Assembly: GCA_964577555.1 (NCBI GenBank)
Contig: CAZNZM010000004.1
Span: 87,671-119,670 of the forward strand
Source: an uncultured archaeon
GTDB lineage: Archaea > Iainarchaeota > Iainarchaeia > Iainarchaeales > Iainarchaeaceae
Direction: 5' to 3'
DNA: 32,000 bases
Shown here piece by piece: positions 1,163 through 31,680 of this stretch. The position numbers and the translations under genes were made by a program. The notes beneath the pieces were generated by a model. It was not told the DNA's origin and ran no database searches. It worked only from the letters and a program-made list of their open reading frames with translations. Numbering within the stretch: the first letter of the stretch is position 1; every line of letters begins with the position of its first letter.

Positions 1163-1312
1163 CAAAAAAAAACAACAAAAACAAAACTCACAAAAAAAAC
1201 AAGCCACAAAAAAAATCAAAATTTTCATAAAAAAATAAAAGAATTGACACGCAAAAACAAAAAAACAACACAAACAACAACCTAAAAAAAACAAAAATAC
1301 AAAACAAGCTTA
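1163..1312 (+). repeat. A-tract spacer with embedded cores (locus 0), partial copy of the 'ctcacaaaaaaaacaagccac' module
   Basis: 1187-1207 'ctcacaaaaaaaacaagccac' parallels 23146-23167 and 5497-5516. 'aattgacacgc' at 1241-1251. Confidence 0.5.
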
Positions 1313-1321
1313 ACAGAAACG

Positions 1322-1329
1322 TATTTAAA
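1322..1329 (+). promoter_or_regulatory. TATA-like box for the 1352-5179 operon (leaderless or near-leaderless)
   Basis: 'tatttaaa' lies about 25 nt upstream of ATG 1352. No Shine-Dalgarno in between. Confidence 0.4.
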
Positions 1330-1351
1330 GTAAAAAGTTATTCAATTTTTC

Positions 1352-4528: not shown

Positions 4529-5179
4529 ATGAAGCAAAACAGCAGCATAATAGAAATAATAGAAAAAATGGTCAGGGACGGCGAACCAGAAGAAAAAATA
4601 TTAAAAACACTCCTCGAGCTCGGCGTGGAACCTGAAAAAGCAAAAAAACTGCTTCTGTTGGGGCAAGCAGATACATTTTCACTACTTAAAAGAGAAATAA
4701 GAAACATAGTACACGATGAATTAGAAAAAGAAAAACCAATGCTCAAAAAATTCATAGAAGAAGAAACAATACAAGCAAACTACGAAGCAAGACAAGAACT
4801 GACAAAAGCAGTAATAAGCGACCTAAAAGAATATGAAAAAGACATTTCAGGATACAACAAAACATTCCAAGAAAAAATTGAAGAAAATGTCAGAAAAATA
4901 ACCGAAATGAACGACAAACTAAAAATAAAACTAAACGAAATGGGAGAAAACCTTAGACAAGTACAAATAGACATGGATGAAATGAGAATAAAAGGAATAG
5001 GGTCAAGAAACAAACTAATAAGCAACGCACTCTGGCTATTAGGACTATTTTTCGGAGTTGGAACATTCTACATTTTCATCACAAGTTTCGGACAAGCACT
5101 AACAATCGACAACATAATAGTAATGATAACAATGGCGCTAATCACAATAACAATGCTTTTTGTGGCAACAATAATATGA
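4529..5179 (+). CDS. hypothetical coiled-coil protein with C-terminal TM helices (216 aa)
   Basis: N-terminal 'LLELGVEPEKAKKLL' UBA-like helix pair (a weak impression), long K/E heptad-like middle, two C-terminal hydrophobic helices. Confidence 0.6.
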   Translation: MKQNSSIIEIIEKMVRDGEPEEKILKTLLELGVEPEKAKKLLLLGQADTFSLLKREIRNIVHDELEKEKPMLKKFIEEETIQANYEARQELTKAVISDLKEYEKDISGYNKTFQEKIEENVRKITEMNDKLKIKLNEMGENLRQVQIDMDEMRIKGIGSRNKLISNALWLLGLFFGVGTFYIFITSFGQALTIDNIIVMITMALITITMLFVATII

Positions 5180-5640
5180 AAAAGCCAAAAACAAGTTCAA
5201 AAAAAACAAACAAAAAAATTAATTGAAAACTAAAAATGAAAACACGCTTCACTAAAAAAAACGGCTCTACAAGAAAAAGACCATAAACGATTGAATTTTA
5301 AAATTAAAAATTGACAAAAAAAACTTGGCTAAAAAAAAACAGACAAACAAAAATTCAAAAAAAACAAAAAAACGGCTCACAAAAACAAACAACAAAAAAA
5401 ACCAACCAAAAAAAAATAAGAAAAAAAATGACTTGCAAAAAAACAAAAAAAAATAACAAAAAAACTTGACAAGCAACATCAAAAAAACAAAATTGGCTTG
5501 CAAAAAAACAAGCCACAACAAAATAATTGACAAAAAAAATCGTCCAACAAAAAAACCAAAAAAACCGCAAAAAAATGGCTCACAAAAAACAAAAAAATAA
5601 TGACAAAAAAAGGCTCGCCAAAACAAATTTAAAAAAAATA
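5180..5640 (+). repeat. A-tract modular repeat locus A
   Basis: Cores at 5311-5316 (ttgaca), 5324-5330 (cttggct), 5373-5380 (cggctcac), 5429-5436 (tgacttgc), 5465-5474 (cttgacaagc), 5493-5501 (ttggcttgc), 5576-5583 (tggctcac) and 5612-5619 (ggctcgcc), each flanked by A6-A9 runs. 5488-5583 is near-identical to 23137-23233. Confidence 0.85.
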
Positions 5641-5646
5641 AAAAAA
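5631..5646 (-). terminator. oligo-T tract terminator candidate for the minus-strand hjc unit
   Basis: Read on the minus strand, T7 and T8 runs follow directly after the stop of the 5770-5648 ORF. Oligo-T is the known archaeal termination signal. Confidence 0.45.
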
Positions 5647-5647
5647 T

Positions 5648-5770
5648 TCAAGCTTTCTCATAATCCTTCAAATTCTTTAAAGCGTTCTCAAGCAAAATTT
5701 TTTTCCTCAAACTTTTTTCCTTAGAAATCAACCGGTCGATTTCACTTATAATCATTTCAATTTCCAACAT
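5648..5770 (-). CDS. candidate small protein (40 aa, amphipathic helix), below the ORF-track size cutoff
   Basis: My translation is MLEIEMIISEIDRLISKEKSLRKKILLENALKNLKDYEKA. The ORF limits coincide with the only non-A-tract island in the 640-bp spacer. It lies 50 nt downstream of hjc on the same strand and is followed by T-runs. Confidence 0.35.
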   Translation of the reverse strand: MLEIEMIISEIDRLISKEKSLRKKILLENALKNLKDYEKA

Positions 5771-5820
5771 ATTACTAATAAATCATTCGAGCAATTTAAA
5801 AATAAAAGCAAAAAAAATAA

Positions 5821-6222
5821 TCAACGCAAAGTGCTTTGCAAACCACAAAGAACATCAATAGAAACACCAAACTTTCTCGCCTTTTCAAACGAAATAGTAT
5901 AATACTTTCCCTTGGCAAAATCAGAAGCCTTAAGAAAAAACCAGCCTTTATTAGGATACTTCCAAGCAATATAAGTTTCACTGCCAGCAATCCTCTCCCA
6001 CTTTATGAGGTCATTCATTTGAATGGAACTAATAGCTAAATAAGGAGCTCTCCAAGCCTTACATTCTATTGAAATATTCCTGCCATTACCAAGCACAATA
6101 AGGTCAGGGCTAGGCAAATGATTCTTGCCAGAACCAGCACTGCGAACAACAGCAAAACCGCGTTCAGCAAAAAGCTCCATAAGTTCACGCTCAGCACTTG
6201 CCCCTTTATTATAACGAGCCAT
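5821..6222 (-). CDS. hjc: Holliday junction resolvase Hjc
   Basis: 'GASAERELMELFAERGFAVVRSAGSG', 'PDLIV' and 'IECK' match the archaeal Hjc nuclease motifs (E...D...E-x-K). Confidence 0.9.
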   Translation of the reverse strand: MARYNKGASAERELMELFAERGFAVVRSAGSGKNHLPSPDLIVLGNGRNISIECKAWRAPYLAISSIQMNDLIKWERIAGSETYIAWKYPNKGWFFLKASDFAKGKYYTISFEKARKFGVSIDVLCGLQSTLR

Positions 6223-6243
6223 AAAAAAACTAACAACACTTTC

Positions 6244-6253
6244 ATTTAAAATT
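6244..6253 (-). promoter_or_regulatory. TATA-like box for hjc (leaderless)
   Basis: Minus strand reads 'attttaaatg', centred about 27 nt upstream of the hjc ATG (6222). Confidence 0.45.
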
Positions 6254-6446
6254 TGAAGCCCGACAAAAAAACCAAAACAAAAACAAAAAAACAGAGCCTA
6301 CAAGGTTTGACGAAAAATTAAACAGAAAAAGGCACAACGTCACATTAATATACTTTTTCCAAGCAAAAATAAATACAAGCCCAAAAGGGCATTATGCTTA
6401 GAGAATCAGGATTTAAGCTTTTGAAACAAAAAAAATTGGTTATTGC

Positions 6447-6728
6447 GTGACACAAAAAATCGCAAAAATAGAATTGGAAACAATCCCTAATTCAGACAAA
6501 TTCAGAATTATGGGTTTCAATCCATGGACAGGAAGACTAAGAGTCAAAATAAAATCAAAAGCTCAAAAAGGAGAAGCTAATAAAGAACTTTTATTAGAAT
6601 TTCAAAAAATATTCAAAAACGAAGCACAAATCCTTTCAGGAGAAAAAAGCAGAAAAAAAACAATACTGCTAAAAAACATCTCGGAAAAGGAAGCAAAAGA
6701 AACACTTACAAAAAAAAGCAAATCCTGA
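6447..6728 (+). CDS. DUF167 / YggU-family (UPF0235) protein
   Basis: 'RLRVKIKSKAQKGEANKELLLEFQKIF...ILSGEKSRKKTILL' matches the DUF167 signature (GKAN...SG..SR.K). GTG start at 6447. Confidence 0.75.
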   Translation: MTQKIAKIELETIPNSDKFRIMGFNPWTGRLRVKIKSKAQKGEANKELLLEFQKIFKNEAQILSGEKSRKKTILLKNISEKEAKETLTKKSKS

Positions 6729-6752
6729 TTCTAAAAACCAAAAAAAAAGGAG

Positions 6753-8171
6753 ATGGAAAAAATGGCAAAAACATACATAAATGCTGTAAAATACGCAATC
6801 AAAATGAGTTTTGAAGTCGACGGAATAGTTGATAAACCAGACATAATAGGCGCAATATTCGGACAAAGCGAAGGACTGCTTGGAGACGAAATGGACCTCA
6901 AAGAACTGCAAAAAAACGGAAAACTTGGAAGAATAGAAATCAATCACACAACATCAATGGGAAAAACAAAAGGCGAAGTCCTAATACCTTCCTCGCTTGA
7001 CATGGCCGAAACAAGCCTTTTAGCAGCAGGAATAGAAACAGTAGACAAAGTAGGCCCATGCGAAGCAAAATTCAAATTAATCGACATAGAAGACACAAGA
7101 ACAGAAAAAAGACAAGAAATAAAAGACAGGGCAAAAGAAATACTAAAAATGCTAATGGAAAAATCATCACCAGAAACACAAACACTTTCAGACGAAATAA
7201 GAGAAAACGCAAGAGCGGCTGACATAATAGAATACGGCCCCGACAAACTACCAGCAGGTCCAGATGTTGAAACAAGCGAAGAAATAATAATAGTTGAAGG
7301 AAGAGCAGACGTACTCAACATGCTCAAAAACCAAATAAAAAATGTAATAGGAATGAATGGCTCAAACATATCTCCAAGCCTTGCACAACTAACCAAAACA
7401 AAAACAGTAACAGCATTCGTTGACGGCGACAGAGGAGGAATACTCAACGCAAGAAAACTTATGCAAATAGCAAAAGTGGATTTTATAGCACAAGCACCAA
7501 CCGGAAAAGAAGTAGAAGAACTCACAAGAAAAGAAATACTGCTTTCACTAAAAAAGAAAAAACCAGCAACAGAAATAGAAGACACAAACACCCAACAAAA
7601 AGAATATCAAGGACACATATTCAAAGAAAGAATAACAGAAAACCAATATAACAGAAGACACCCAAGAAAAAATATGTACAGAGAAACAGAAAGTTACTAC
7701 AAAAAAAACCAAGAATACAACCTAAATATAAGAAATAAAAGAGGAAGACGCATAAACACAAGAAGCACGACAAGATATGCACCATCAATAAGCAGAAACC
7801 AAAAACCACAAACAAATTGGGTGCAAAAAATAGAAAGAGTACCATTCAACATTGACAACACGGAACCAAAAACAACACCACAAAAACTGTCACAAGACGA
7901 AGAAGCAATATTCAAACCGTTTTTTGAACAACTTAAAGGAACAATGACTGCAAAAATACTCGGCAAAAAAAACGAAATAATCAAAGAAGCAAAAGTAAAA
8001 GACTTAATAAAAGAGCTACCAGAAATCAAAGAAGCCAACGCAATAATATTCGACGGAGTAATAACAAAAAGACTAATAGAAGCCGCAGAAAAATCCGGAA
8101 TAAAATACATAATCGGAGCCAAAAAAGGAAAAATAGAAAATAACAACAATGTAAAAACAATAACACTATAA
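6753..8171 (+). CDS. dnaG: archaeal DnaG (TOPRIM primase-like, exosome-associated)
   Basis: 'KYAIKMSFEVDGIVDKPDIIGAIFGQSEGLLGDEMDLKELQKNGKLGRIEI' and TOPRIM 'IIIVEGRADVLN...VDGDRGG'. The alternative start ATG 6762 has better spacing from GGAG at 6749-6752. Confidence 0.95.
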   Translation: MEKMAKTYINAVKYAIKMSFEVDGIVDKPDIIGAIFGQSEGLLGDEMDLKELQKNGKLGRIEINHTTSMGKTKGEVLIPSSLDMAETSLLAAGIETVDKVGPCEAKFKLIDIEDTRTEKRQEIKDRAKEILKMLMEKSSPETQTLSDEIRENARAADIIEYGPDKLPAGPDVETSEEIIIVEGRADVLNMLKNQIKNVIGMNGSNISPSLAQLTKTKTVTAFVDGDRGGILNARKLMQIAKVDFIAQAPTGKEVEELTRKEILLSLKKKKPATEIEDTNTQQKEYQGHIFKERITENQYNRRHPRKNMYRETESYYKKNQEYNLNIRNKRGRRINTRSTTRYAPSISRNQKPQTNWVQKIERVPFNIDNTEPKTTPQKLSQDEEAIFKPFFEQLKGTMTAKILGKKNEIIKEAKVKDLIKELPEIKEANAIIFDGVITKRLIEAAEKSGIKYIIGAKKGKIENNNNVKTITL

Positions 8172-8250
8172 AACAAAAACCTAAATACAAACAACCTCCA
8201 ATTTCAAAATAAAAAAAAGCAACAACAATAAAATTCCAAAAAAATAAATT

Positions 8251-8712
8251 TCACTTCTTCCTCTTTGCAAAAGGCCTGGCTACTTCAACGACTTGCTTAG
8301 ACTCCTTCAAATCCCTTATATTTTCCTCTATAGGAATTATAACCCTATCAGACTTATAAAACATCCAACCAACAAACAAAACTGCAAGCCAAAAGAAAAC
8401 ATTGGCAATAGGCACCAAAAGACCCTGCCAAAATTGCCTAATAGTAAGCTCCCTCGAAGAAGGCCTCACAACAACGCCTGTAGAATCATACAAATTTTTA
8501 GCACAAACAGCAAACTCCGCCTTCCCATCATAAGTCGAATAATCAATATTCTGCGCACACTCTTTATAAGCCTTTAAATTATCCCAAGAATCAAACATTA
8601 CTGCAGTTGAATGAATAAACATCAACAACGCCCATACAACAACAAAAGCACCCACAAGCTTTGGAGTATGAACATCCCTACCAGCAATCCTAAAATAAAT
8701 AAGCTTCCTCAT
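8251..8712 (-). CDS. hypothetical membrane protein (153 aa, two TM helices, Cys-containing loop)
   Basis: Intact minus-strand ORF with an ordinary, non-lysine-rich composition. TM helices 'LVGAFVVVWALLMFI' and 'VFFWLAVLFVGWMF'. 'tttatatat' TATA-like box upstream on the minus strand. Confidence 0.6.
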   Translation of the reverse strand: MRKLIYFRIAGRDVHTPKLVGAFVVVWALLMFIHSTAVMFDSWDNLKAYKECAQNIDYSTYDGKAEFAVCAKNLYDSTGVVVRPSSRELTIRQFWQGLLVPIANVFFWLAVLFVGWMFYKSDRVIIPIEENIRDLKESKQVVEVARPFAKRKK

Positions 8713-8874
8713 CTAAACCTATTTTAATACATTAATTTAATATATAAATCTTGCCAAAGACCCCAAAATTATCAAAAAAACCTTTGCTAAAAAAAAACAC
8801 AAATAAAACACGCAATATAAAGTTTTTGCTGGAATAAGTCACATAACTTTATAAAAAACAACAAAAAAAATAAA

Positions 8875-8947
8875 GGGCCGGTGGTCTAGCGGTTATGACA
8901 CATCGTTTACACCGATGAGGTCGCAGGTTCGACTCCTGCCCGGCCCA
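8875..8947 (+). tRNA. tRNA-Val (anticodon TAC)
   Basis: Acceptor GGGCCGG/CCGGCCC, anticodon arm CATCG-TTTACAC-CGATG, T-arm GCAGG-TTCGACT-CCTGC, discriminator A. No encoded CCA. 'ctttataaaa' box about 24 nt upstream. Confidence 0.9.
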
Positions 8948-8949
8948 AT

Positions 8950-9120
8950 AAAAAAAACAAAACTGCTACAAAAAAAACAAAAAAAATTTAACCTAAAAAA
9001 TCGGCTGCAAAAAACACTGACAATACAAAAAAAATCCAAAAATAACAAAAACCATAAAAACTTAAAAACAACTTAAAAAAAAATTCAAAAACAATAATAA
9101 TAAGCAAAATAATAATCAGT
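8950..9120 (+). repeat. A-tract spacer with embedded cores (locus B, weak)
   Basis: 'aaaactgctacaaaaaaaac' and 'aaaaatcggctgcaaaaaac' (core 9001-9008) follow the same A-run/core/A-run pattern. Confidence 0.4.
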
Positions 9121-9123
9121 AAA

Positions 9124-10782
9124 ATGAAAAAAAACATAATTGCACTAATCATGCTAATAAACATAGCAACAATAACACAATCAAACGAAATAATTCCAAA
9201 CACTATAAAATCTGCAGACTTTACAATTCATACAGAAACAAAAGGAAACTTCTACGGAAAAATAACAAACGGAGACACCCTAGAAATAAAAATACTACAA
9301 CCACAAAATAACGAAACACAAAAAATAATAGAAGAAGAAAGCTACTTAGAAATAGGAAATGACAAAATACTGCCAACAAAAACAAATGAAAAAGAACTCC
9401 AATACCTAACATTCAAAATAAGCAACTTATTAAAATACGCAAAAACACCTGAATTCAAAATAAAAAACACTGTAAGAGTGAAAAAAACAACTGACATAAA
9501 AATAGGAAAAGATTACAACCTGACAAAAACAATAAACAAATACGAAGAATACAAAAAGCCAAGCGAATATGTTGAATCAAACGATCCAACACTGCAAAGC
9601 AAAGCAACACTTGAATTTACTTCAGACTCATGGATAGAAAATGCAATACAAATATCGGAATGGATTAACTCAAACATAAAATACGACTTTGAAAATTATT
9701 ACAACGAAACATACAGCGCAAAACAAACCTACAACAACAAAGCAGGAGTATGCGACGAATTCGCAAACCTAACAATAGCATTCGGCAGAATAAAAGGAAT
9801 ACCTGCAAAATATGTCGCAGGAATAAGCTTTGACGGCCAAAGATTCGCAAACCACGGTTGGGCAGAATTTTACAACCCTGAAACCGGCTGGATTCCAATA
9901 GATACAACTTTTGCAGAAACAGGATACGTAGATGCGGCACACATAGAATACTCAAAATCGAAAGATGCGAATAAAAACCCAGACATGATAATAATAACAA
10001 ACAGCAAATACCAAATAGAAGCCTATGCAACAACATCAGAACCAGAAGTAACAATAAACTCAATAGAAAGATTCTCAAGAATGACAAAAATAACAGATGA
10101 AACCCCAGAAAAAGTATCCCCAAACGAACAATTCGAAATCAAAGCAACAATACAAAACATCTCAAACAATGACGGAATATTTCCAATAAAACTAATAATA
10201 CACCCTGATTTCAAAACAACAAACACACAAAAACTAATACACTTAAAAGCTGGAGAAACCAAAAAAATAAGTTGGAAAACAACAGCACCAAACGAAAACA
10301 CCGAAGAAACAGACTACACTTACAAAACGATAATAGCCACAATAGACGGAAACATAGAAAAAACAATAACCGTAACAGGAAAAAAAGACGAAACAAAAAA
10401 GGAAATATCAATAATAGACATAAACCCAGAAATAAAAGAAAATAAAATAAAAATCACTATAACACTGGAAAACCCAAACCAAACCCAAAAAATAAAAATA
10501 AAATTCCTAAAAGAAAACGAAACAATAGAAAAAGAATACGAACTGCCAAACCAATCATATTACAAAATTGAAGAAACTTTTGACAACACCAATACAGACA
10601 CAATAGAAATCAAAATATACTTAAAAGAAGAAAAAACATACAAAATAACAATTCCAAAACAAAAAGAAGAAACAAACCAAGAAGAACAAACAACGCTTAT
10701 AGCAAAAATAACAGCTACAATAATTATAACAATTACAACAATAATAATTACAGCACTATTAATTGCAAAATCAAGACAATAA
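9124..10782 (+). CDS. transglutaminase-like (Cys-His-Asp) surface protein with N-terminal signal/TM and C-terminal TM anchor
   Basis: 'AGVCDEFANLTIAFGRIKGIPAKYVAG', 'HGWAEFY' and 'WIPIDTT' form the transglutaminase-like core triad. Beta-rich CARDB-like region downstream. C-terminal 'IIITITTIIITALLIA' anchor. Confidence 0.8.
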   Translation: MKKNIIALIMLINIATITQSNEIIPNTIKSADFTIHTETKGNFYGKITNGDTLEIKILQPQNNETQKIIEEESYLEIGNDKILPTKTNEKELQYLTFKISNLLKYAKTPEFKIKNTVRVKKTTDIKIGKDYNLTKTINKYEEYKKPSEYVESNDPTLQSKATLEFTSDSWIENAIQISEWINSNIKYDFENYYNETYSAKQTYNNKAGVCDEFANLTIAFGRIKGIPAKYVAGISFDGQRFANHGWAEFYNPETGWIPIDTTFAETGYVDAAHIEYSKSKDANKNPDMIIITNSKYQIEAYATTSEPEVTINSIERFSRMTKITDETPEKVSPNEQFEIKATIQNISNNDGIFPIKLIIHPDFKTTNTQKLIHLKAGETKKISWKTTAPNENTEETDYTYKTIIATIDGNIEKTITVTGKKDETKKEISIIDINPEIKENKIKITITLENPNQTQKIKIKFLKENETIEKEYELPNQSYYKIEETFDNTNTDTIEIKIYLKEEKTYKITIPKQKEETNQEEQTTLIAKITATIIITITTIIITALLIAKSRQ

Positions 10783-10836: not shown

Positions 10837-10908
10837 GCGACCGTAGTCTAGTGGTTATGATTCGACCTTGCCAAGGTCGGGGCCCGGGTTCAATTCCCGG
10901 CGGTCGCA
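10837..10908 (+). tRNA. tRNA-Gly (anticodon GCC)
   Basis: Acceptor GCGACCG/CGGTCGC, anticodon arm CGACC-TTGCCAA-GGTCG, T-arm CCGGG-TTCAATT-CCCGG, discriminator A. 'ggtttaaaag' box about 28 nt upstream. Confidence 0.9.
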
Positions 10909-11528
10909 CCTTTCAAATCAAACTCAGATTTAATTATTCTCACAACTTGCGCCTTAACACTTCCAATATCCTTTGACGCATCAATAAAAAAAATTTTTTC
11001 AAAAGGAAAAACAGACTTCAAATCCAAAAAACCACGCCTCACCTTTTCCAAAAAATCTTCCCTCTCAAAAACATCAACATGATTACGCCTGCCTATCCTC
11101 TTCAAAGCATCAGCAACAGGCAAATCCAAAATAAAAACCAAATCAGGAGAAGGTAAACCAGCATGCAAATCAAAAATTTTTTTCAAAGAAATGCCTTGCA
11201 AAGCCTGATAAACAAAAGTACTATACTTGAACCTATCAGACAAAATTATTTTGCCCTCACTCAAAGCAGGAATTATTTCCTTTTCAACATGCTCTCTCCG
11301 GTCATATACATACAATTCAAGAAACTGATTTGCATTAACAATTGGATCAACATTTGACTTAAGCAATTCCCTAACCTTCTTGCCAAAAAAACCATTAGTA
11401 GGCTCGGCAGTTACGATAATTTTTGACCTAGAAACCCCCATTTCAGTAAACCAAACCTTTATCTCACGAGCCAAAGTCCCCTTTCCAGAACCATCAATGC
11501 CGTCAAATACAATCCAAAAACCCTTCAT
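10890..11528 (-). CDS. tmk: thymidylate kinase
   Basis: 'FWIVFDGIDGSGKGT' P-loop, 'DRFKYSTFVYQ' and a LID-like 'RIGRRNHVDVFE'. ATG 11528 preferred over TTG 11534. The last 6 codons and stop overlap the tRNA-Gly 3' end. Confidence 0.9.
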   Translation of the reverse strand: MKGFWIVFDGIDGSGKGTLAREIKVWFTEMGVSRSKIIVTAEPTNGFFGKKVRELLKSNVDPIVNANQFLELYVYDRREHVEKEIIPALSEGKIILSDRFKYSTFVYQALQGISLKKIFDLHAGLPSPDLVFILDLPVADALKRIGRRNHVDVFEREDFLEKVRRGFLDLKSVFPFEKIFFIDASKDIGSVKAQVVRIIKSEFDLKGATAGN

Positions 11529-11662
11529 CACCAAAAATTAAAATGAAAAAGATTAATTAAACCCCCTTATTAAAAAAGAAAACCACAAAAAAAATCAAAT
11601 AAAAAGCCATGTTAAGACTTTTAACCATTTCCAATTCATTTTAATTTATAAAACAAAAAAAA

Positions 11663-12085: not shown

Positions 12086-12530
12086 AAAAAAACAAAAAAA
12101 ATGAAACCAACAAACCAAAAAAAAAACAAAACTTCAAACAAAAAAAATACCAAACAAAAAATATCAAAAAAATGCCTAACAAAAAAATAAAAAAAATAAA
12201 ATAGATCAAAAAAAACTACTTGCAAAAAAACAAAACCCAATTAAAAAAACAACAAAAAAAACAAATTGAAAAAAAATAAATGAGAAAAAAAATTAAGGCA
12301 CACAAAGACAAAACAAAAAATAAATACCCAAAAAAATGAAATCAAACAAAAAAAATAAAGTTGCCAAAAAAAATGGCTTGCAAAAACAAAAAGAAAAAAA
12401 AGCAATTTGAATTTTCTTAAAAACAAAAAAAACACAAAAATCGGTCGACAAAAAAATGCCAAAAAAAACGAGACAAAGAAAAAAATGACACAAAAAAAAT
12501 AATTAGAAAATGGAAAAGACAAAGCCTCTA
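12086..12530 (+). repeat. A-tract modular repeat locus C
   Basis: 12216-12268 'ctacttgcaaaaaaacaaaacccaattaaaaaaacaac...' is a partial copy of the 18642-18737 / 23374-23456 module. Also 'tggcttgc' 12374-12381, 'tcggtcgacaaaaaaatgcc' and 'aatgacacaaaaaaaat'. Confidence 0.7.
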
Positions 12531-12537
12531 AAACAAG

Positions 12538-12548
12538 CTTTTTAAATG
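12538..12548 (+). promoter_or_regulatory. TATA-like box for the S19e-FtsY ribosomal operon
   Basis: 'ctttttaaatg' is the first T-containing element after about 450 bp of A-tract DNA and lies about 125 nt upstream of ATG 12674. Confidence 0.4.
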
Positions 12549-13815: not shown

Positions 13816-14243
13816 AAGGAGAGCAAGCAAATTACAACATATCGCTAGCAAAAGCATTTCTATATCCCCCAAAAAAAAGAATAATAAAAGCAATAGGTGT
13901 TATAAAAAAATTTGCAAAAAAACACACAAGAGCAAAAACAATAAATATAGCAAACGAAGTCAATGAGTACCTGCATAAAAATTCGAAAAACTTGCCAAGA
14001 AAAGTCAATGCAATCCTATTCAAAGAAAACGACAAAATAACAATATTCATGCAAAACGGAAAAGAACTAAAAACATACCTAAAAAAAAGAGAAGAAGAAA
14101 AGAAAAAAAAAGAAGAGAAAAAAGAAGAACAAAAAAAAGAAAAAAACGAAAAAGAAGAAACAGATAAAATAAAACTTGAAGAAAAAAAGAAAAAAGAAGA
14201 AGCCGCGGAAGCCTCACAAATAAAAAGAAAAACAAACAAGTGA
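13812..14243 (+). CDS. rpl31e: 50S ribosomal protein L31e with K/E-rich C-terminal tail
   Basis: 'YNISLAKAFLYPPKKRIIKAIGVIKKFAKKHT...INIANEVNEYLHKNSKNLPRKVNA' fits the eL31 pattern. Synteny L39e-L31e-aIF6. Confidence 0.88.
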   Translation: MKGEQANYNISLAKAFLYPPKKRIIKAIGVIKKFAKKHTRAKTINIANEVNEYLHKNSKNLPRKVNAILFKENDKITIFMQNGKELKTYLKKREEEKKKKEEKKEEQKKEKNEKEETDKIKLEEKKKKEEAAEASQIKRKTNK

Positions 14244-15584: not shown

Positions 15585-16889
15585 ATGTTCGACTTCCTAA
15601 AGAAAAAAATAACAAATTTTACAGACAAACTCAAAGAAGTACTACAAACAAAAAAAGAAGAAACAACAGAACAAAAAAAACAAATTGAACCTGAAAAAGA
15701 ACAAAAAGAACCAGAACAAACAATTAAAATAGAAAAAAACGAAAAAGAAACACAAGAAACAGAACAAAAACAAACTGAAAAAAAAGAAACAACACAACAA
15801 ATTCAAAAAACGTTGAAAGAACCAGAAAAATTTGAAAACTTAAAAGAAAAAACACAAACAAACATAGAACAAAAACATGAAACAAAACAAGAATCAAAAA
15901 CACAACCAATAGAAAAAAAAACATTCACAGAAATCATAAAAGGAATTTTCACGCAAAAACAGCCAACTGAAAAAAAAACAACACAAATAATTGAAGATAA
16001 AAGAGAACTCAAAGCAAAAACAGGAATACTGCAGAAAGTCACAAGCGCAGTAACTGGCAAAATAAAAATAAACGAAAAAGACACACAAAACTTTTTTGAC
16101 GAACTAGAACTAAGCCTCTTAGAAGCAGATGTAGAACAAGAAACAGCAACAGCAATAGTAAAACAACTCAAAAACCAATTAATCGGAAAAGAAATTTCCG
16201 CAAAAGAAGACCTAACCAGCTACCTTAACAATGAAATAAGAAAAGCGCTTTCAAAAGTAATGGAAACAGAAAAAATAAACATATCACAAATTGAAAAAAA
16301 ACCATTAAAAATATTATTCGTTGGCCCAAATGGTGCAGGAAAAACAACAACAATAGCAAAAATAGCAAACTACTTCCTGAAAACAAACAAAAGCGTTATA
16401 ATGGCTGCGGGTGACACTTTCAGGGCCGCATCAATAGAACAACTAGAAACACACGCAAACAAACTTGGGGTAAAAATAGTAAAACAAAACTATGGTTCAG
16501 ACCCAGCAGCAGTAGCATTCGACGCAGTAAAAGCAGCCGAAGCAAAAAACATAGATGTAGTACTTATAGACACTGCAGGAAGACAAGAAACAAACAAAAA
16601 CCTAATTGAAGAACTAAAAAAAATAGACAGAGTAATAAAACCAGACATAAAACTTTACGTAGGAGAAGCATATACAGGACAGGCATTACTAGAACAAGCA
16701 AGCGAATTCAACAAAGCAATAGGTATAGATGGATTCATACTTACAAAAATAGACGCAGACGCAAAAGGTGGAACAGCAATTTCACTACTTTACACACTCA
16801 AAAAACCAATAGTTTTCATAGGAACCGGACAAAACTATGACGATTTAATAGAATTCAAACCAGAATTCATAATAGACAGAATAATATAA
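15585..16889 (+). CDS. ftsY: signal recognition particle receptor FtsY
   Basis: NG domain motifs 'ILFVGPNGAGKTTTIAKIA', 'DTFRAASIEQL', 'DTAGR' and 'TKIDADAKGG'. Long K/E/T/Q-rich A-domain at the N-terminus. Confidence 0.95.
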   Translation: MFDFLKKKITNFTDKLKEVLQTKKEETTEQKKQIEPEKEQKEPEQTIKIEKNEKETQETEQKQTEKKETTQQIQKTLKEPEKFENLKEKTQTNIEQKHETKQESKTQPIEKKTFTEIIKGIFTQKQPTEKKTTQIIEDKRELKAKTGILQKVTSAVTGKIKINEKDTQNFFDELELSLLEADVEQETATAIVKQLKNQLIGKEISAKEDLTSYLNNEIRKALSKVMETEKINISQIEKKPLKILFVGPNGAGKTTTIAKIANYFLKTNKSVIMAAGDTFRAASIEQLETHANKLGVKIVKQNYGSDPAAVAFDAVKAAEAKNIDVVLIDTAGRQETNKNLIEELKKIDRVIKPDIKLYVGEAYTGQALLEQASEFNKAIGIDGFILTKIDADAKGGTAISLLYTLKKPIVFIGTGQNYDDLIEFKPEFIIDRII

Positions 16890-17020: not shown

Positions 17021-17305
17021 ATGAAAGTATCGGAACTTAAACCAAAATCAGCAGTGCCAGAAATAACATTAGAAATTGTTTCCAAAGGAGAACCAAGAAA
17101 ATGGTTAAATGAAAGAGGGGCAGGAACAGTATGCAACTGCGCAGCAAAAGACGATACAGGGGAAATATCCTTAAGTTTATGGAACGAACAATGCGACACA
17201 GTAAATGAAGGTGATAAAATTATAATAAAAGACGGATGGTGCAACGAATACAAAGGGCAATTACAAATATCAACTGGAAAAAAAGGAAAAATTGAAAAAA
17301 TTTGA
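17021..17305 (+). CDS. single OB-fold ssDNA-binding protein (short RPA/SSB-like)
   Basis: 'VCNCAAKDDTGEISLSLWNEQCDTVNEGDKIIIKDGWCNEYKGQLQISTGKKGKIEKI' fits the archaeal mini-RPA/SSB OB-fold pattern. Confidence 0.7.
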   Translation: MKVSELKPKSAVPEITLEIVSKGEPRKWLNERGAGTVCNCAAKDDTGEISLSLWNEQCDTVNEGDKIIIKDGWCNEYKGQLQISTGKKGKIEKI

Positions 17306-17482
17306 AACATAAAAAAAACAAAAAAAACTGAAACAAAACTTGGCTTAAATCAATACAAAAGAAAAAACATTTTTCAATTAAAATAAAAAATTATCCAAAT
17401 AATAAGCAGGTTAAAACAACAAAAAAAATCCAAAAACCAAACAAAAAATAAAAAAAGAAAGTAAAAAAAAACTAATAAAAAG

Positions 17483-17489
17483 TTTTTTT
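17483..17489 (+). terminator. oligo-T (T7) terminator candidate downstream of the SSB gene
   Basis: One of very few T-runs on the + strand. A second one (T8) lies at 17590-17597. Confidence 0.3.
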
Positions 17490-17630
17490 AACAAAATAAG
17501 TTATAAAAAGCCAATAAATTGAAAAATAAAACATTTTAACGTTTAAAACGGTAAAAAAAAGGAATAATTAGGTTTTAATGTTTGAATCGTTTTTTTTGTT
17601 AGACTTTGAAAATCGATGCGTTTAAATATT

Positions 17631-17755
17631 ACCTCAACAGGATATTATAAAGGGTTGGATTCAACTATAGCTACTTTTTCAAATGGATTTAAGCATTTGA
17701 TTAGACGGCTGGGTTGAATTTCATGATTTAATCATAAATAAGGAGGAAAATAAAG
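17631..17755 (+). promoter_or_regulatory. TATA-like box plus about 95-nt structured leader of the TRAM gene
   Basis: 'tttaaatat' at 17631-17639. P1 pairs 17659-17665 (attcaac) with 17713-17719 (gttgaat) and encloses hairpin 17679-17685/17694-17700 (tcaaatg/catttga). Hairpin 17723-17735 (atgat-tta-atcat) abuts SD 'aggagg' at 17741-17746. Confidence 0.4.
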
Positions 17756-18067
17756 ATGGAGAGAAATAACAGAAGAAACAGGTTTGGACCAATACCAGTG
17801 AAAGAAGGAGAAGAACAAGAAGTAACAATAGAAGGAATAGGAGAAAAAGGAGACGGCATAGCAAAAGTACAAGGCTATGTTATAATTGTTCCTAACACCC
17901 AAAAAGGAGAAAGAGTAAAAGTAAAAATCAAAGCAGTAAGAGGCAAAGTAAGCTTTGCAGAAGTAATAGAAAAACTTGGAACTGCGACACAAGAACAAAA
18001 CCAAGAATCAAAAAACGAAGAAAATCAAAGCCTTGAAAATAACTCTGACGAAGAAAACCAAAACTAA
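17756..18067 (+). CDS. TRAM domain RNA-binding protein with acidic/N-rich C-terminal tail
   Basis: 'PVKEGEEQEVTIEGIGEKGDGIAKVQGYVIIVPNTQKGERVKVKIKAVRGKVSFAEVI' is a canonical stand-alone TRAM domain. Strong SD. Confidence 0.9.
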   Translation: MERNNRRNRFGPIPVKEGEEQEVTIEGIGEKGDGIAKVQGYVIIVPNTQKGERVKVKIKAVRGKVSFAEVIEKLGTATQEQNQESKNEENQSLENNSDEENQN

Positions 18068-18128
18068 AAAATAATATTTATGTATTAAATCAATTTTAAT
18101 GCAAATACAAAAAAAAGGAGGGTTGGAA

Positions 18129-18335
18129 ATGGCAAGCTTAAGCGAACTAATAGGAATTGAACCAAGCGAAGAACTAAGAACAAAACTTCTAAAACAAGAA
18201 TTCAAACTCAGGAAAAAACAACCTGAAGCATGGACAAAAACAAAATACAGGCCATACGCAAACTTCAGGGCAAAGAAAAAAGAAGAAATTACAAACGAAA
18301 ACAACACAAAAAAAATAGCAATAATTGAAGCATAA
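18129..18335 (+). CDS. hypothetical small basic protein (68 aa)
   Basis: ATG 18129 is preceded by 'aaggaggg' at optimal spacing. No motif recognised. Confidence 0.55.
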   Translation: MASLSELIGIEPSEELRTKLLKQEFKLRKKQPEAWTKTKYRPYANFRAKKKEEITNENNTKKIAIIEA

Positions 18336-18367
18336 ACAAAAAAATAATTTAATGCATACTAAATATT

Positions 18368-18388
18368 CTCGGCACTAAAAGTGCCGGG
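18368..18388 (+). terminator. GC-rich stem-loop downstream of the 68-aa gene (terminator-like or processing site)
   Basis: ctcggcact-aaa-agtgccggg gives a 9-bp stem including one G-U pair, followed by 'cttt'. It stands out in the AT-rich context. Confidence 0.35.
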
Positions 18389-18390
18389 CT

Positions 18391-18870
18391 TTACAAAAAC
18401 AAAATAAAAAAACCCAACTATCAGTATCTTAAAACACAAAAATTTTTTGCTAGCCAAACTTGAAAAAAAAGGAAAAAACTAAAACCTGACACACAAAAAC
18501 AAAAAAATAAAATTAACCAAACAAAAACGAATAACAAAAAATCACTAAAACTACAAAACAAAAAAAAAAGACACAAAATAAAGTTAAATTTCAAAAAAAA
18601 AATAATAAAAATAGCATAAAAAAAATTGGCATACAAAAAAAGGCTCGCCAAAAACAAACAACAAAAAAAACAAAATCCAATTAAAAAAAACAAAAAATAA
18701 TGACAAAAAAAACTTGGCTAGCAATATCAAAAAAAACAGCACACAAAAACAAAAAAAACAACTTGACAAAAAAAACAATTAAAAATTAAAAACTGATTTT
18801 ACAAAACAAAACAGCCACCAACAAAATTTCGAAAAACATCAAAAAAGCAAAGTAAACCAAAAGAATTATC
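18391..18870 (+). repeat. A-tract modular repeat locus D
   Basis: 18642-18737 'ggctcgccaaaaacaaacaacaaaaaaaacaaaatccaattaaaaaaaacaaaaaataatgacaaaaaaaacttggctagcaatatcaaaaaaaac' aligns with 23374-23456. Also 'ttgctagcc' 18448-18456 and 'cttgacaaaaaaaac' around 18762. Confidence 0.8.
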
Positions 18871-18930
18871 TGCACTAACCCCTAAAAATGCCGAAAACAA
18901 TGCAATTTGCTTATTAAAAATACATTACAC

Positions 18931-18945
18931 ATTTAATTTTAAAAG
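18931..18945 (+). promoter_or_regulatory. TATA-like box for the srp54 operon (leaderless)
   Basis: 'atttaattttaaaag' is centred about 25 nt upstream of ATG 18962. No SD. Confidence 0.45.
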
Positions 18946-18961
18946 CAAAGAGTGATAAAAA

Positions 18962-20311
18962 ATGGGTTTAGGCGAAAGCCTCAGAAAAGCAGTCGAAAAA
19001 ATAAGAAATTCAAGCACTCTGGACAGAGAAACAGTAAAAGAAGCAATCAAGGAACTACAAAGAGCATTAATCTCGGCAGACGTAGAAATAACATTAGTAC
19101 TAAAACTAAGCAAAGAAATAGAAGAAGAAGCATTCAAAGACCTACCAGAAGGAATAAGCAGAAAAGAACACGTAATCAAAACAACACACGACAAACTTAC
19201 AGAAATGCTAGGAGGCACGACAAAACCGCCACAACAACCAAAAAGAATACTCTTGTTAGGTTTATTCGGGCAAGGAAAAACCACGACAGCAGGAAAATTG
19301 GCAAAATGGTACTCAAAAAGAGGAAATAAAGTAGGGTTGATAGGAGCCGATGTTTTCAGACCTGCGGCAATAGAACAATTAAGAACAATCGCGGAAAAAG
19401 CAAAAGCGGAGTTTTATGGCGATGAAAAAGAAAAAAGCGCCGCAAAAATAGCAAAAACAGGAATTGAAAAACTAAAAAATTGCGACATAATAATATGCGA
19501 CTCGGCAGGCAGAAGCGCACTAGACCAGGAACTAATAAAAGAAATAAAAGAAATAAACGAAGCATTCAAACCAGAACAAAAATGGCTTGTAATAAGCGCC
19601 GATGTAGGACAAATAGCCAAAAAACAAGCAAATGCATTCCATGAAGCAATCGGAATAAACGGCGTAATACTGACAAAAACAGACGGCTCTGCAAAAGGAG
19701 GAGGAGCACTCGCAGCATGCAAAGCAACAGGAGCCAACGTTTATTTCATAGGCACAGGAGAAAAAATAGATGACTTCCAAGAATTCGATTCAACAAGATA
19801 CTTGAGCAGAATAATGGGCTATGGCGACCTGCAAGCACTACTTGAAAAAGCAAAAGAAATACAAGAAGACCAAGGAATAGAAGAACAAGAATTAATACTA
19901 AAAGACTTCAACCTGGCCAATTTCTACAAACAACTCAAAACAGCAAGAAAAATGGGGCCAATAAACAAAATAATGGAAATGTTAGGGCTAAGCCAAAAAA
20001 TGCCAAAAGAACTAATGGAACTAGGAGAACAAAAACTAGACAAATACGGTTATATGATAGACTCAATGACAAAATACGAAAAAGAACACCCAGAACTAAT
20101 TAACAAAAGCAGAATAGCAAGAATTGCAAAAGGAAGCGGAACAACACAAGAAGAAGTAAGAGAACTACTAAAAAACTTCAAAAAAATGAAAAAAATGTTC
20201 AAACAACTAAGCAACATAGACACTGAAAAAATTGAAAAAGGCGATGCCGAAGCACTGCAAAAAAAACTTTACAACACATTCAAAAAAAAGAAAAAATTCA
20301 AAATAAGGTGA
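18962..20311 (+). CDS. srp54: signal recognition particle protein SRP54
   Basis: 'LLLGLFGQGKTTTAGKLA', 'DVFRPAAIEQL', 'DSAGR' and 'TKTDGSAKGGGAL', then the Met-rich M domain 'MGPINKIMEMLGL' and a basic C-terminus. Confidence 0.97.
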   Translation: MGLGESLRKAVEKIRNSSTLDRETVKEAIKELQRALISADVEITLVLKLSKEIEEEAFKDLPEGISRKEHVIKTTHDKLTEMLGGTTKPPQQPKRILLLGLFGQGKTTTAGKLAKWYSKRGNKVGLIGADVFRPAAIEQLRTIAEKAKAEFYGDEKEKSAAKIAKTGIEKLKNCDIIICDSAGRSALDQELIKEIKEINEAFKPEQKWLVISADVGQIAKKQANAFHEAIGINGVILTKTDGSAKGGGALAACKATGANVYFIGTGEKIDDFQEFDSTRYLSRIMGYGDLQALLEKAKEIQEDQGIEEQELILKDFNLANFYKQLKTARKMGPINKIMEMLGLSQKMPKELMELGEQKLDKYGYMIDSMTKYEKEHPELINKSRIARIAKGSGTTQEEVRELLKNFKKMKKMFKQLSNIDTEKIEKGDAEALQKKLYNTFKKKKKFKIR

Positions 20312-21135: not shown

Positions 21136-22197
21136 GTGAACCAAAAAGAAAAATTCATGAAAGAAGCACTTAAAATAGCAGAAAAAGGAACAGGATTAGT
21201 ACCACCAAATCCGATAGTAGGAGCAATCATAGTAAAAGACGGAAAAATAGTTGGAAAAGGTTGGCACAAAAAATACGGAGAAAAACACGCAGAAGCAAAC
21301 GCAATAGAAAACGCGGGAAAAAAAGCAAAAGGAGCAGAACTATACGTAACACTTGAACCATGCAACCATTACGGCAAACAACCACCATGCACAAAACTCA
21401 TAATCAAAGCAGGAATAAAAAAAGTGTATGCAGCAATAAAAGACCCAAACAAAAAATCCAAATCAGGCGGAAAAGAACTACAAAAAAAAGGAATACCAAT
21501 AGAATTCGGACTATGCGCAGACAAAGCAACAGAGCAAAACGAAATATTCATTAAAAACATGAAAACAAAAAAACCATTCATAGCACTTAAAATGGCAATG
21601 ACAAAAAATGGCTATATAACTTGGGGCAACGGAAAAAGAAAAAAAATTTCAGGAAAAAAAGCAATGGAATACTCGCAAAAACTCAGAAAAAAATACGACG
21701 CAATCCTAGTAGGAGTAAACACTATAATAAAAGACAATCCAAGGCTTATATACAAAAAAAACCAAAAATACAACCCTGCCAGAATAATACTTGACCCGAA
21801 AGCAAGATCCCCGCCAAATTCAAAAATATTCAAACAAAAAGGAAAAACAATAATAGTTTGCACAAAAAAAGCAAACAAAGAAAAAATAAAAAAACTAGAA
21901 AAAAGAAACGTTGAAATACTCATTGCAAAAGAAAAAAAAGGAAAAATAAACCTTGAATGGCTACAAAAAAAATTATATGAAAAAGGAATAACTTCAATAA
22001 TCATAGAAGGGGGAAAAAAAACAGCACTCGAATTTCTTAAAACAAAATTAATAGATAAATTCTACGCAATAATATCAAACAAAAAAATCAAAACAGGATT
22101 AAAAATATTCAAACTCAAAAACTCGGAAATGGAAATAACAGAAATAAAAAAACTTGGAAAAGACACTCTAATAATACTTAAAAGGTGCTTGAAATGA
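21136..22197 (+). CDS. ribD: bifunctional riboflavin biosynthesis protein RibD (pyrimidine deaminase / uracil reductase)
   Basis: Deaminase motifs 'KHAEANAI' and 'LEPCNHYGKQPPC'. Reductase domain 'PFIALKMAMTKNG' and 'AILVGVNTIIKDNPRL'. GTG 21136, or ATG 21157. Confidence 0.9.
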   Translation: MNQKEKFMKEALKIAEKGTGLVPPNPIVGAIIVKDGKIVGKGWHKKYGEKHAEANAIENAGKKAKGAELYVTLEPCNHYGKQPPCTKLIIKAGIKKVYAAIKDPNKKSKSGGKELQKKGIPIEFGLCADKATEQNEIFIKNMKTKKPFIALKMAMTKNGYITWGNGKRKKISGKKAMEYSQKLRKKYDAILVGVNTIIKDNPRLIYKKNQKYNPARIILDPKARSPPNSKIFKQKGKTIIVCTKKANKEKIKKLEKRNVEILIAKEKKGKINLEWLQKKLYEKGITSIIIEGGKKTALEFLKTKLIDKFYAIISNKKIKTGLKIFKLKNSEMEITEIKKLGKDTLIILKRCLK

Positions 22198-23090
22198 AAA
22201 TAGCAATAACCGGCAGCGAAGGAATGATTGGCAAAGAACTTACAAAAAACCTAGAAAGAAAAAACCACAAAATAATCAAATGCACAAAACAAGAATGCAA
22301 CATACTTGACATTGAAAAACTTAGAAAAAAATTCAAAGGTTGCAAGATAATTATACACCTTGCCGCACAACTTGACGAAAAAGCAAAAGACTTGTGGGAA
22401 GTAAATGTAAAAGGAACAGAAAATTGCCTCGAAGCGGCAGCAACAAATGGAATTGAACAATTTATTTACATAAGCAGCGTAGGCGTTTTTGGACTACAAA
22501 AAGGGCTAAAAGACGAATCAACAGAACCAAAACCAGAAACACTATACGAAAAAAGCAAATTAGAAGCTGAAAAAAAAGTTCTATCATACCAAGAAGTTTT
22601 CCACATAACAATATTGAGGCCTGCAATAGTAGTTGGAAACAATAAATATTGGAACCAAATAATCAAACTCATAAAAAAAGGTTTCCCAATTATTGGCAAC
22701 GGAAAAAACCATTGGCAAACAATCTCCACAGAAGATGTTGCAAATGCAATTGAATTCTGCATAGGCAACGAAAACACATACGGAGAAACATTCATAATAG
22801 CTGAAAAAAAACCGAAAACACTTGAAGAAATCGTAAAAATAATAAGAAACGAATTGGAAATAAAAGGAAAAATAATAAAAATACCAGAATGGCTTGGAAA
22901 AATATTGGCAAAAATAAACACCATAATAAAATTCAACAACATACTCAACATAGAATACATTAAAAGGTTGCAAGCTGACAGGCACTATTCAATTTCAAAA
23001 ATTGAAAAAATAGGATGGAAACCAAAAAACAATTTTGAAGAAACAATAAAAAAAGTCATAGAACAAATGAAAAAAGACAACCAATTATAA
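22194..23090 (+). CDS. NAD-dependent epimerase/dehydratase family protein
   Basis: Rossmann 'MKIAITGSEGMIGKEL', 'YISSVGVFG' and 'YEKSK' (the YxxxK catalytic motif). ATGA overlap with the ribD stop. Confidence 0.85.
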   Translation: MKIAITGSEGMIGKELTKNLERKNHKIIKCTKQECNILDIEKLRKKFKGCKIIIHLAAQLDEKAKDLWEVNVKGTENCLEAAATNGIEQFIYISSVGVFGLQKGLKDESTEPKPETLYEKSKLEAEKKVLSYQEVFHITILRPAIVVGNNKYWNQIIKLIKKGFPIIGNGKNHWQTISTEDVANAIEFCIGNENTYGETFIIAEKKPKTLEEIVKIIRNELEIKGKIIKIPEWLGKILAKINTIIKFNNILNIEYIKRLQADRHYSISKIEKIGWKPKNNFEETIKKVIEQMKKDNQL

Positions 23091-23530: not shown

Positions 23531-23567
23531 AAGATTGATTAAAATAAAATCATTGAAAAATAATCAC

Positions 23568-29995: not shown

Positions 29996-30035
29996 CTTTT
30001 ATAAAAAATTAAAAGCAAAAGAAAAAACTTCAAAA

Positions 30036-31648: not shown

Positions 31649-31680
31649 GAAAATATAAAACACCCCGAATATTTTTTATA

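Follow-up and report, generated by a model that had tools for sequence, protein, structure and literature searches.

Two intergenic spacers in the genome of an uncultured archaeon, 17.6 kb apart, share a non-coding segment of 96 bp that is nearly identical in both. An earlier note on this DNA held that such identity implies either recent copying or selection. The question raised by the locus is which of the two accounts for the shared segment, and what kind of DNA surrounds it. We analyzed the whole stretch of 32,000 nucleotides that contains both spacers (the window), together with related contigs.

The shared segment and its two loci

The window corresponds to the second half of the JGI metagenome contig Ga0484859_0000471 (64,232 bp). 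The archaeal core genes found in the window are Hjc, archaeal DnaG, RadA, SRP54, FtsY, S19e, eIF6 and GGGP synthase (GGGPS). Since the GGGP synthase has its closest named homologues in Candidatus Diapherotrites / Iainarchaeum MAGs, the host is placed among the DPANN archaea (Diapherotrites/Iainarchaeota). The two spacers, called A and E, their parts and their neighbors are as follows, in window coordinates.

4529-5179, plus strand: 216-aa gene, the last gene of the plus-strand operon before spacer A
5180-5647, plus strand: spacer A, a 468-bp A-run/word spacer from the 216-aa gene (plus) to the operon of the 40-aa ORF and Hjc (minus)
5438-5487, plus strand: block 2, copy A, reading C-A9-TAAC-A7-CTTGACAAGCAACATC-A7, with an exact shared stretch at 5447-5487
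5488-5583, plus strand: block 1 core, copy A, with looser similarity over 5484-5623 and an exact shared stretch at 5501-5564
5488-5508, plus strand: 21-nt unit CAAAATTGGCTTGCAAAAAAA, delimited by a three-way alignment, with the direct repeat AAAAAAACAA on its flanks
5494-5515, minus strand: hairpin TGGCTTG/CAAGCCA with a T7 loop, followed by ATTTTGTTTT, terminator-like in shape
5648-5770, minus strand: conserved 40-aa ORF, located downstream of Hjc and immediately next to spacer A
18661-18738, plus strand: third, diverged copy of block 2, left flank included, in the spacer that lies upstream of SRP54
22185-23090, plus strand: NAD-dependent epimerase gene, the last plus-strand gene before spacer E
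23091-23567, plus strand: spacer E, a 477-bp A-run/word spacer from the epimerase (plus) to GGGP synthase (minus), a lineage-specific mosaic
23137-23233, plus strand: block 1 core, copy E1, extended to 23133-23273, with a minus-strand hairpin at 23143-23164
23235-23274, plus strand: patch in E1 that matches contig L022 (reverse complement, 1973-2012; window-equivalent 32127-32166) at 95% over 40 bp
23403-23460, plus strand: block 2, copy E2, joined straight to CAAGCCA
23568-24368, minus strand: GGGP synthase (PcrB) gene, with its 3' end towards spacer E

Both loci thus occupy the gap between the end of a plus-strand operon and the 3' end of a minus-strand gene, as the earlier note had described; at locus A, this gene is the 40-aa ORF. 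By hand count, 39 of its 40 residues are identical in the sister lineage described below and 29 of 40 in a more distant relative (L014), and the ORF had no Pfam match.

Realignment of the 96-bp core (5488-5583 against 23137-23233) returned exactly the differences listed before: TG to CA, G to A and one extra A in an A-run, that is, three substitutions and one indel. The looser similarity said to continue to about 5624 and 23275 was also recovered, as a BLASTN local alignment of 5484-5623 with 23133-23273 at 90.8% over 142 bp. Block 2 was 96% identical over 50 bp (5438-5487 against 23403-23452). It lies directly upstream of block 1 in spacer A and about 180 bp downstream of it in spacer E, where it is joined directly to CAAGCCA without CAAAATTGGCTTGCAAAAAAA, again as reported. 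The longest exact shared stretches were 64 nt (5501-5564 and 23150-23213) and 41 nt (5447-5487 and 23412-23452), and the junctions seen at the boundaries of the alignments fall in A-runs. The pair is dispersed rather than tandem, and two copies of block 1 were counted within the ~39 kb of genome inspected.

Because the sequence is of low complexity, three nulls were used to judge this similarity. The local score of spacer A against spacer E was 94, about 29 standard deviations above dinucleotide shuffles (21.3 ± 2.5, maximum 30). Shuffles that preserved the words and A-runs reached 39.5 ± 4.8 (maximum 66). Other pairs of real spacers scored 15-31, except for 18308-18961 against spacer E (45), which reflects the third, diverged copy of block 2. 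No null matched the observed score, and the composition-matched shuffles that might have undone the match did not do so.

Composition of spacer E and the 21-nt unit

Spacer E has a mosaic make-up: its pieces come from at least three other spacers and meet within A-runs. The part at 23133-23248 was closest to spacer A (94% over 116 bp). The patch at 23235-23274, in turn, was nearer to the spacer just past the window end than to spacer A, and the part at 23381-23455 matched 18661-18738, upstream of SRP54, at 88% over 78 bp. This third copy also matched 5437-5487 in spacer A at 88% over 52 bp. In addition, 23207-23247 and 23354-23395 repeat each other inside spacer E. Since the boundaries of similarity differ from piece to piece, the shared DNA has the character of a mosaic rather than of a unit.

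The 21-nt unit CAAAATTGGCTTGCAAAAAAA was present in spacer A and E1 and missing from E2, in agreement with the earlier note. It was missing from the third copy as well (18672-18775), so that an insertion in the A/E1 type is more likely than a deletion. The unit spans exactly one period, with a AAAAAAACAA direct repeat on either side, and the TGGCTTG within it is the reverse complement of the adjacent CAAGCCA. This layout would be the footprint expected of slippage or of fold-back template switching.

Orthologous spacers in related genomes

The orthologous spacers were compared in a sister lineage (L006 and L017-L020, from sample 3300010938 and others), in which GGGPS is 94% identical in protein sequence and the BLAST-aligned blocks are 86-92% identical in nucleotide sequence. 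In L006, the gap between the epimerase and GGGP synthase genes was only 21 bp, and the 477-bp spacer E was missing. The two genes overlap in L009 and L010 (GGGPS, 81%), and a different gene lies between them in L007. The absence of spacer E from the sister and the outgroups indicates that it was gained in the lineage of the window. The two cores differ at ~4% of positions, against a nucleotide divergence of ~8-14% between the lineages in aligned blocks. An empty-site comparison with the sister at locus E showed no target duplication or terminal repeats, and the junction shares only an A-run.

At locus A, the sister has an A-run spacer of the same style, and its homology with the window goes no further than the 40-aa ORF. 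The best score between the sister and window versions of spacer A was 27-29, while the other spacer pairs in the same table scored 14-26, which indicates that the spacer has been almost wholly restructured in the sister. A weak match of 78% in the sister has the same order of words (CAAGCC ... GAC ... TCnnCnAAC ... TGGCTCnC). This match, which is not significant alone, may represent block 1 in a diverged orthologous form. The two lineages also differ in the spacer that follows tRNA-Val, where the window has ~145 bp more than the sister.

Turnover was also evident within the sister lineage. The genes of L017, L018 and L020 are 99.2-99.7% identical, yet the three contigs have three spacer architectures. 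The L018 spacer contains a 180-bp tandem duplication (2.1 copies, 97-98%). A segment of 86 bp is common to L017 and L020 and missing in L018, and the left part of the L020 spacer differs. In the distant relatives L007, L009, L014 and L015, the intergenic regions were ordinary and had a much weaker strand skew.

Of the two explanations put forward in the earlier note, these results favor copying: spacer E is missing in the relatives, the A/E identity (~96%) exceeds that of the sister genes (~86-92%), and the junctions lie in A-runs. Selection fares poorly, since spacer A can hardly be aligned with its orthologue in the sister. We consider it probable that recent non-allelic copying among hypervariable, lineage-specific A-run spacers explains the near-identical segments. 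The best reading of the 96-bp core is that it has no function of its own and that its identity reflects its youth.

Coding potential, hairpin and termination signals

No Pfam match was found for open reading frames on either strand of the block. A protein-coding reading of the block was rejected on this ground, together with the 1-nt indel in the A-run, which shifts the frame after KKPKK, and the absence of the block from the sister. A search of Rfam at E<=1 in 5100-5900, 23000-23650 and 17300-18970 gave no match, and at the gathering threshold the whole window gave three tRNAs only. A reading of the block as an array of sigma-70 promoters was rejected as well: its TTGACA words score as -35 boxes, which are meaningless in an archaeon. 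The actual promoters here are TATA boxes that lie outside the A-run arrays, ~30 nt before start codons.

The hairpin at 5494-5515 had been described as broken in copy E. This holds on the plus strand, where E has a weakened form of the TGGCTTG/CAAGCCA stem seen in copy A. It fails on the minus strand, where the two changes in E give U·G and G·U pairs and where both copies form a stem of 8 pairs with AUUUUGUUUU after it. The minus-strand fold z-scores were -2.9 and -3.3, and the plus-strand fold was near the shuffle expectation (z of -1.2 to -1.9). With two sequences, a stem retained through G·U pairs is compatible with structure and is not evidence for it. A scan for terminator-like sites (hairpin plus T-tail) picked both copies, with one site found against 0.3 expected.

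On the minus strand, the stop codons of both the 40-aa ORF and GGGPS are followed directly by T7-8 tracts, and these two sites thus have the at least five T residues just downstream that mark a candidate archaeal oligo-T terminator. Tracts of 5-6 T suffice for archaeal termination in vitro, and the four consecutive T-tracts after a histone gene of Pyrococcus furiosus are stacked terminators (PMC2253867). The strength of the U-tract correlates with termination efficacy (PMC8716108).

The shared block could accordingly be thought of as a selected functional element, either a minus-strand terminator or insulator or a protein-binding array for the YGGCTYRC and TTGAC words. Each copy is found in a convergent gap, downstream of a minus-strand gene, and retains the 8-pair minus-strand hairpin with ATTTTGTTTT, with the low fold scores given above. 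The words are strongly enriched and strictly oriented. Archaeal RNA polymerase stops at tracts of at least 5 T, and stacked oligo-dT terminators are known (PMC2253867; PMC8716108). However, the block is not conserved in the orthologous spacer of the sister, where spacer E does not exist at all. The distance from the stop codon also differs, at 65-160 nt for locus A and 335-430 nt for locus E, and at E many T7-8 tracts precede the block and would already terminate transcription. The G·U-compatible changes in two sequences provide no covariation evidence, and the form of the word in E, TGGCTCAC, is simply its commonest form; moreover, similar spacers are also found between tandem plus-strand genes. 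A selected element is, on balance, distinctly unlikely, and recent copying remains the preferred reading of the shared block.

Tests for mobility

The block might instead be a small non-autonomous mobile element, MITE-like or REP/BIME-like, present in two spacers. It is a dispersed, near-identical, non-coding copy, it is modular like the bacterial interspersed mosaic elements, and it is located at operon ends. Against this, neither copy is bracketed by terminal inverted repeats, no target-site duplication is present at E, and at its ends the similarity trails off in A-runs. The 39 kb inspected contained no transposase or RAYT gene. REP units are G+C-rich imperfect palindromes linked to RAYT transposases, and BIME/REP sequences are extragenic, enterobacterial, and often located at operon ends or between convergent genes. 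No REP-type imperfect palindrome of ~35 nt was found in the block, whose sole stem is of 7-8 bp.

An exact scan with the 23-nt core of the block returned none of the related contigs in the metagenome collection, a scan that did not return the source contig either; its one match (L016) was a chance match in a bacterial gene. The same scan found nothing in the viral collection, nor in the genome-representative collection, in which close relatives are lacking. A viral link was considered and rejected: three viral contigs match the degenerate pattern A7-YGGCTYRC-A7, as isolated chance occurrences in ordinary sequence. We regard a mobile element as very unlikely. Because the defining features of REP and MITE elements are not found, the duplication is classed as an ordinary recent segmental copy.

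Support for the duplication from independent assemblies

A contig from another JGI sample (L013) was 100% identical to the window over 5138-9894, all of locus A included. Logan contigs of SRR12686701, also 100% identical to the window, ended at 5476 (L005), 5535 (L012) and 23423 (L002), each exactly 30 nt (k-1) into an exact shared stretch. A de Bruijn graph of k=31 branches where a stretch longer than k has two contexts. These ends therefore show the same repeat in the reads, as found by an independent assembler. The gene order at both loci is syntenic with that of the relatives on both sides. An identical Hjc was also found on a second long NCBI contig (119,670 bp). Hjc, the 216-aa protein, GGGPS and DsbA were each listed for two contigs of 50-200 kb, which suggests that this contig carries all four proteins together.

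An artefact of assembly, in which low-complexity sequence was joined chimerically or collapsed, is extremely unlikely as the source of the duplication. In its favor, A-rich DNA of low complexity is hard to assemble, short-read contigs of other assemblies stop within these spacers, and the full length of spacer E, left junction included, comes from one assembly only. Against it, locus A is identical in the contig of another sample, the three Logan ends require that the reads contain two genomic contexts, substitutions and indels distinguish the copies, and the flanks of both loci are syntenic with relatives. The duplication is real, with support for both loci from independent assemblies.

The A-run spacers as a class

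Spacers A and E belong to a set of about 10 long intergenic spacers, which on the plus strand are ~66% A, 17% C, 10% T and 6% G. The A-rich strand of the long spacers is the plus strand whatever the orientation of the flanking genes, and spacers of the same style also lie between tandem plus-strand genes. In these spacers, runs of seven or eight A residues alternate with short oriented words (YGGCTYRC and TTGAC). The distribution of run lengths is bimodal, peaks at 7-8 and falls off sharply at 9-10; runs of 5, 6, 7, 8, 9 and 10 A were counted 43, 23, 49, 62, 15 and 3 times, respectively. The sister lineage has the same pattern of run lengths.

All 10 occurrences of A6-YGGCTYRC-A6 are on the plus strand, and none was found in shuffles. 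In 3.2 kb of spacer, GGCT occurs 21 times, TGAC 19 times and GTCA not at all, which by hand calculation is far from the expectation from composition. The form of the word in E1, TGGCTCAC, is the commonest form elsewhere. Tandem arrays in the spacers of the window were weak only, with periods of 35-37 and 63-66 bp and 69-79% matches, and no regular repeat family of the kind that makes a CRISPR array was found in the spacers. The spacing of the A-tracts is broad (12-17 bp), and helical phasing at 10-11 bp is absent; curved DNA through phased A-tracts was rejected for lack of this periodicity.

The polarity extends beyond the spacers. The plus strand of the window is 49% A and 18.5% T. Plus-strand genes have 10 runs of at least six A per kb and 0.18 runs of at least six T per kb, and minus-strand genes have 2.4 and 1.5 per kb, respectively. 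These densities indicate that the polarity is partly a property of the DNA strand, beyond coding sense. Among the aligned sites, 316 have A in the window and G in the sister and 155 show the reverse; the T/C differences are symmetric (237 versus 234). This is a drift towards A that is asymmetric between the strands.

Short-read contigs of other assemblies were seen to break inside the A-run spacers. The spacers also attract spurious gene calls of 40-119 aa, for K-rich or F-rich 'proteins'; their plus-strand open reading frames are K-rich and their minus-strand ones F-rich, and some are called as genes in the source annotation.

The peak in run length, the oriented words and the retained minus-strand hairpin look non-random and could reflect selection at the level of the class. 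No description of such spacers in DPANN archaea was found in the full-text literature searched, and absence from the literature at large is not proven.

Discussion

The duplication is an ordinary recent segmental copy, and the surrounding class of spacers is the curious part. Read from the junction sequences, the mechanism of copying may be outlined as follows. The A-runs would serve as microhomology for slippage, template switching or ectopic recombination. By these routes, spacers would grow, shrink and exchange pieces, and turnover would run faster than point substitution. Spacer E would have arisen in the 21-bp gap after the split from the sister, with blocks 1 and 2 derived from an A-type spacer and its other patches from at least two further spacers. 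We infer that the copying ran from A to E.

We class the spacer family as low-complexity intergenic repeat DNA of a kind that, in the literature searched, is apparently undescribed for DPANN archaea. It resembles minisatellite-like DNA in the structural polymorphism of near-identical strains (the 180-bp duplication and the indels), in the weak periodicities of 35-37 and 63-66 bp, in the direct-repeat junctions, and in a turnover that is rapid relative to the flanking genes. Unlike minisatellite-like DNA, however, the spacers have no single unit and exchange pieces between loci up to 17.6 kb apart in the window, their A-runs are held tightly at 7-8 nt, and the A residues are on one strand whatever the orientation of the genes. 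The likeness to BIME/REP sequences lies in variable mosaics of a few short motifs that recur at many loci and at operon ends, whereas the spacers are 66% A, have one 7-bp hairpin in the block and belong to an archaeal host.

Two further comparisons are drawn from sequence only. Like stacked oligo-dT terminators, the spacers form on the minus strand a series of T7-8 tracts just downstream of minus-strand genes. They differ in having dozens of tracts per spacer over 250-650 bp, and between tandem plus-strand genes the tracts are on the wrong strand. Like the poly(dA:dT) tracts of chromatin and nucleoid DNA, the spacers concentrate long A-tracts in intergenic DNA, but they are without 10-11 bp phasing. 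In Thermococcus, A-tracts are found at Smc/TrmBL2 boundary sites (PMC11840125).

If the spacers have a role, the most plausible one from their sequence would be that of stacked oligo-T terminators or insulators against transcription in the minus direction, from convergent genes or antisense. A terminator role leaves unexplained the size of the spacers and their presence between tandem plus-strand genes.

A wider reading, which we consider unlikely, is that the A-run/word spacers form a class of archaeal intergenic DNA that propagates itself and has not been described before, either generated or kept up by a dedicated activity or selected for a genome-wide role. The features that fit this reading are the strand polarity, the A-runs at 7-8 nt, the oriented words, the birth of spacers in 20-bp gaps and the reshuffling within <1% divergence. 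Fold-back or template-switching synthesis by a primase-polymerase could be an example of the generator. The role could be to block all transcription in the minus direction or to provide genome-encoded A-rich 3' tails that exosome subunits with a preference for poly(A) (PMC7667871) would recognise. If this reading is true, the 96-bp duplicate would be a snapshot of propagation.

For practical work, A-run spacers break short-read assemblies and draw false gene calls. DPANN genomes are usually described as compact and streamlined; here, a narrow lineage of Diapherotrites has gained hundreds of base pairs of strand-polar filler between essential genes. Spacer E is a dated and mechanistically readable case of the birth of non-coding DNA in a prokaryote. 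If the spacers act in termination, insulation or RNA decay, they would represent a new archaeal regulatory landscape; if they have no role, they would be a clean case of neutral low-complexity expansion.

Oriented words and A-run lengths in the spacers

The intergenic spacers are built from A-runs alternating with short oriented words. A-run lengths were counted in spacers of the window (1163-1351, 5180-5647, 8948-9123, 12086-12540, 18308-18900, 23091-23567, 29793-30035 and 31680-32000). Their distribution was bimodal; it peaked at 7-8 nt and fell off sharply at 9-10, and the counts did not follow a geometric distribution. The spacers of the sister lineage, a related archaeon, had the same length pattern.

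The word A6-YGGCTYRC-A6 was found 10 times in the window, each time on the + strand, and never in 100 shuffles.

Occurrences of A6-YGGCTYRC-A6
5367-5387, + strand
5423-5443, + strand
5570-5590, + strand
12368-12388, + strand
23220-23240, + strand
23369-23389, + strand
23498-23518, + strand
29877-29897, + strand
31947-31967, + strand
31978-31998, + strand

TTGAC-A8 was a second oriented word, with spacer counts of 19 for TGAC and 0 for GTCA. Although the sister spacers could not be aligned with those of the window, similar words were present in them.

Spacer expansion and duplication

The spacer after tRNA-Val (8948-9092) was about 145 bp longer in the window than in the sister lineage, where the promoter region of the transglutaminase-like gene comes almost immediately after tRNA-Val. 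By this sequence comparison, it is a second lineage-specific spacer expansion. In the sister strain L018, the spacer at the locus next to the Hjc gene (L018 4441-4814) carried a 180-bp tandem duplication (2.1 copies, 97% matches), with its junction within an A-run that was lengthened to 12. The duplication was absent from two other sister strains, L017 and L020, in which the adjacent genes were 99.2-99.7% identical to those of L018.

Small open reading frames

Directly downstream of Hjc lies a small conserved ORF that the source contig annotation does not call:
5648-5770, - strand, 40-aa ORF, sequence MLEIEMIISEIDRLISKEKSLRKKILLENALKNLKDYEKA

Counted from the printed sequences, 39 of its 40 residues were identical in the sister lineage, and 29 of 40 in a relative with a 78%-identical Hjc. 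A Pfam search of the ORF gave no match. Judged from sequence, the ORF probably encodes a real small protein that is co-transcribed with Hjc.

Other frames in the A-rich spacers were rejected as genes:
5311-5469, + strand, lysine-rich call of 52 aa in the source annotation
5527-5724, + strand, lysine-rich call of 65 aa in the source annotation
23225-23347, + strand, lysine-rich call of 40 aa in the source annotation
5267-5626, - strand, Phe-rich open ORF of 119 aa, opposite in strand to the lysine-rich calls

Since these had no homologues and their frames were not conserved, they are composition artefacts.

A-rich coding stretches and other features

Low-complexity A-rich stretches also occurred within coding regions (14075-14206, 15625-15941 and 7545-7610), among them K/E-rich runs in the L31e-like gene and in FtsY (N-terminal part), as well as an insert in DnaG. 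Possibly these stretches are an in-frame counterpart to the spacer-building process.

Two further regions of note were 17483-17755 and 18360-18400. Upstream of the TRAM gene, a 445-bp gap differed from the A-run type, with mixed sequence and T7 and T8 runs. A clean hairpin, CGGCACT-AAAA-GTGCCG, lay at about 18370-18390. An Rfam search of both regions at E<=1 gave no match; they may hold an unannotated small RNA. The thymidylate kinase ORF (10890-11534, - strand) and tRNA-Gly(GCC) (10837-10910, + strand) shared about 20 nt, at the 3' end of the ORF.

Strand asymmetry

Across the window (1-32000) and the upstream sequence on contig L004 (1-5472), strand asymmetry was extreme: the + strand contained 49% A versus 18.5% T, with C exceeding G. 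The asymmetry was present in all spacers independently of gene orientation, and within minus-strand genes it was still there but weakened. Where the window aligned with the sister lineage, 316 sites had A in the window and G in the sister, twice as many as the 155 sites with the reverse. T/C differences were symmetric. The pattern suggests that a strand-specific drift towards A is still under way.
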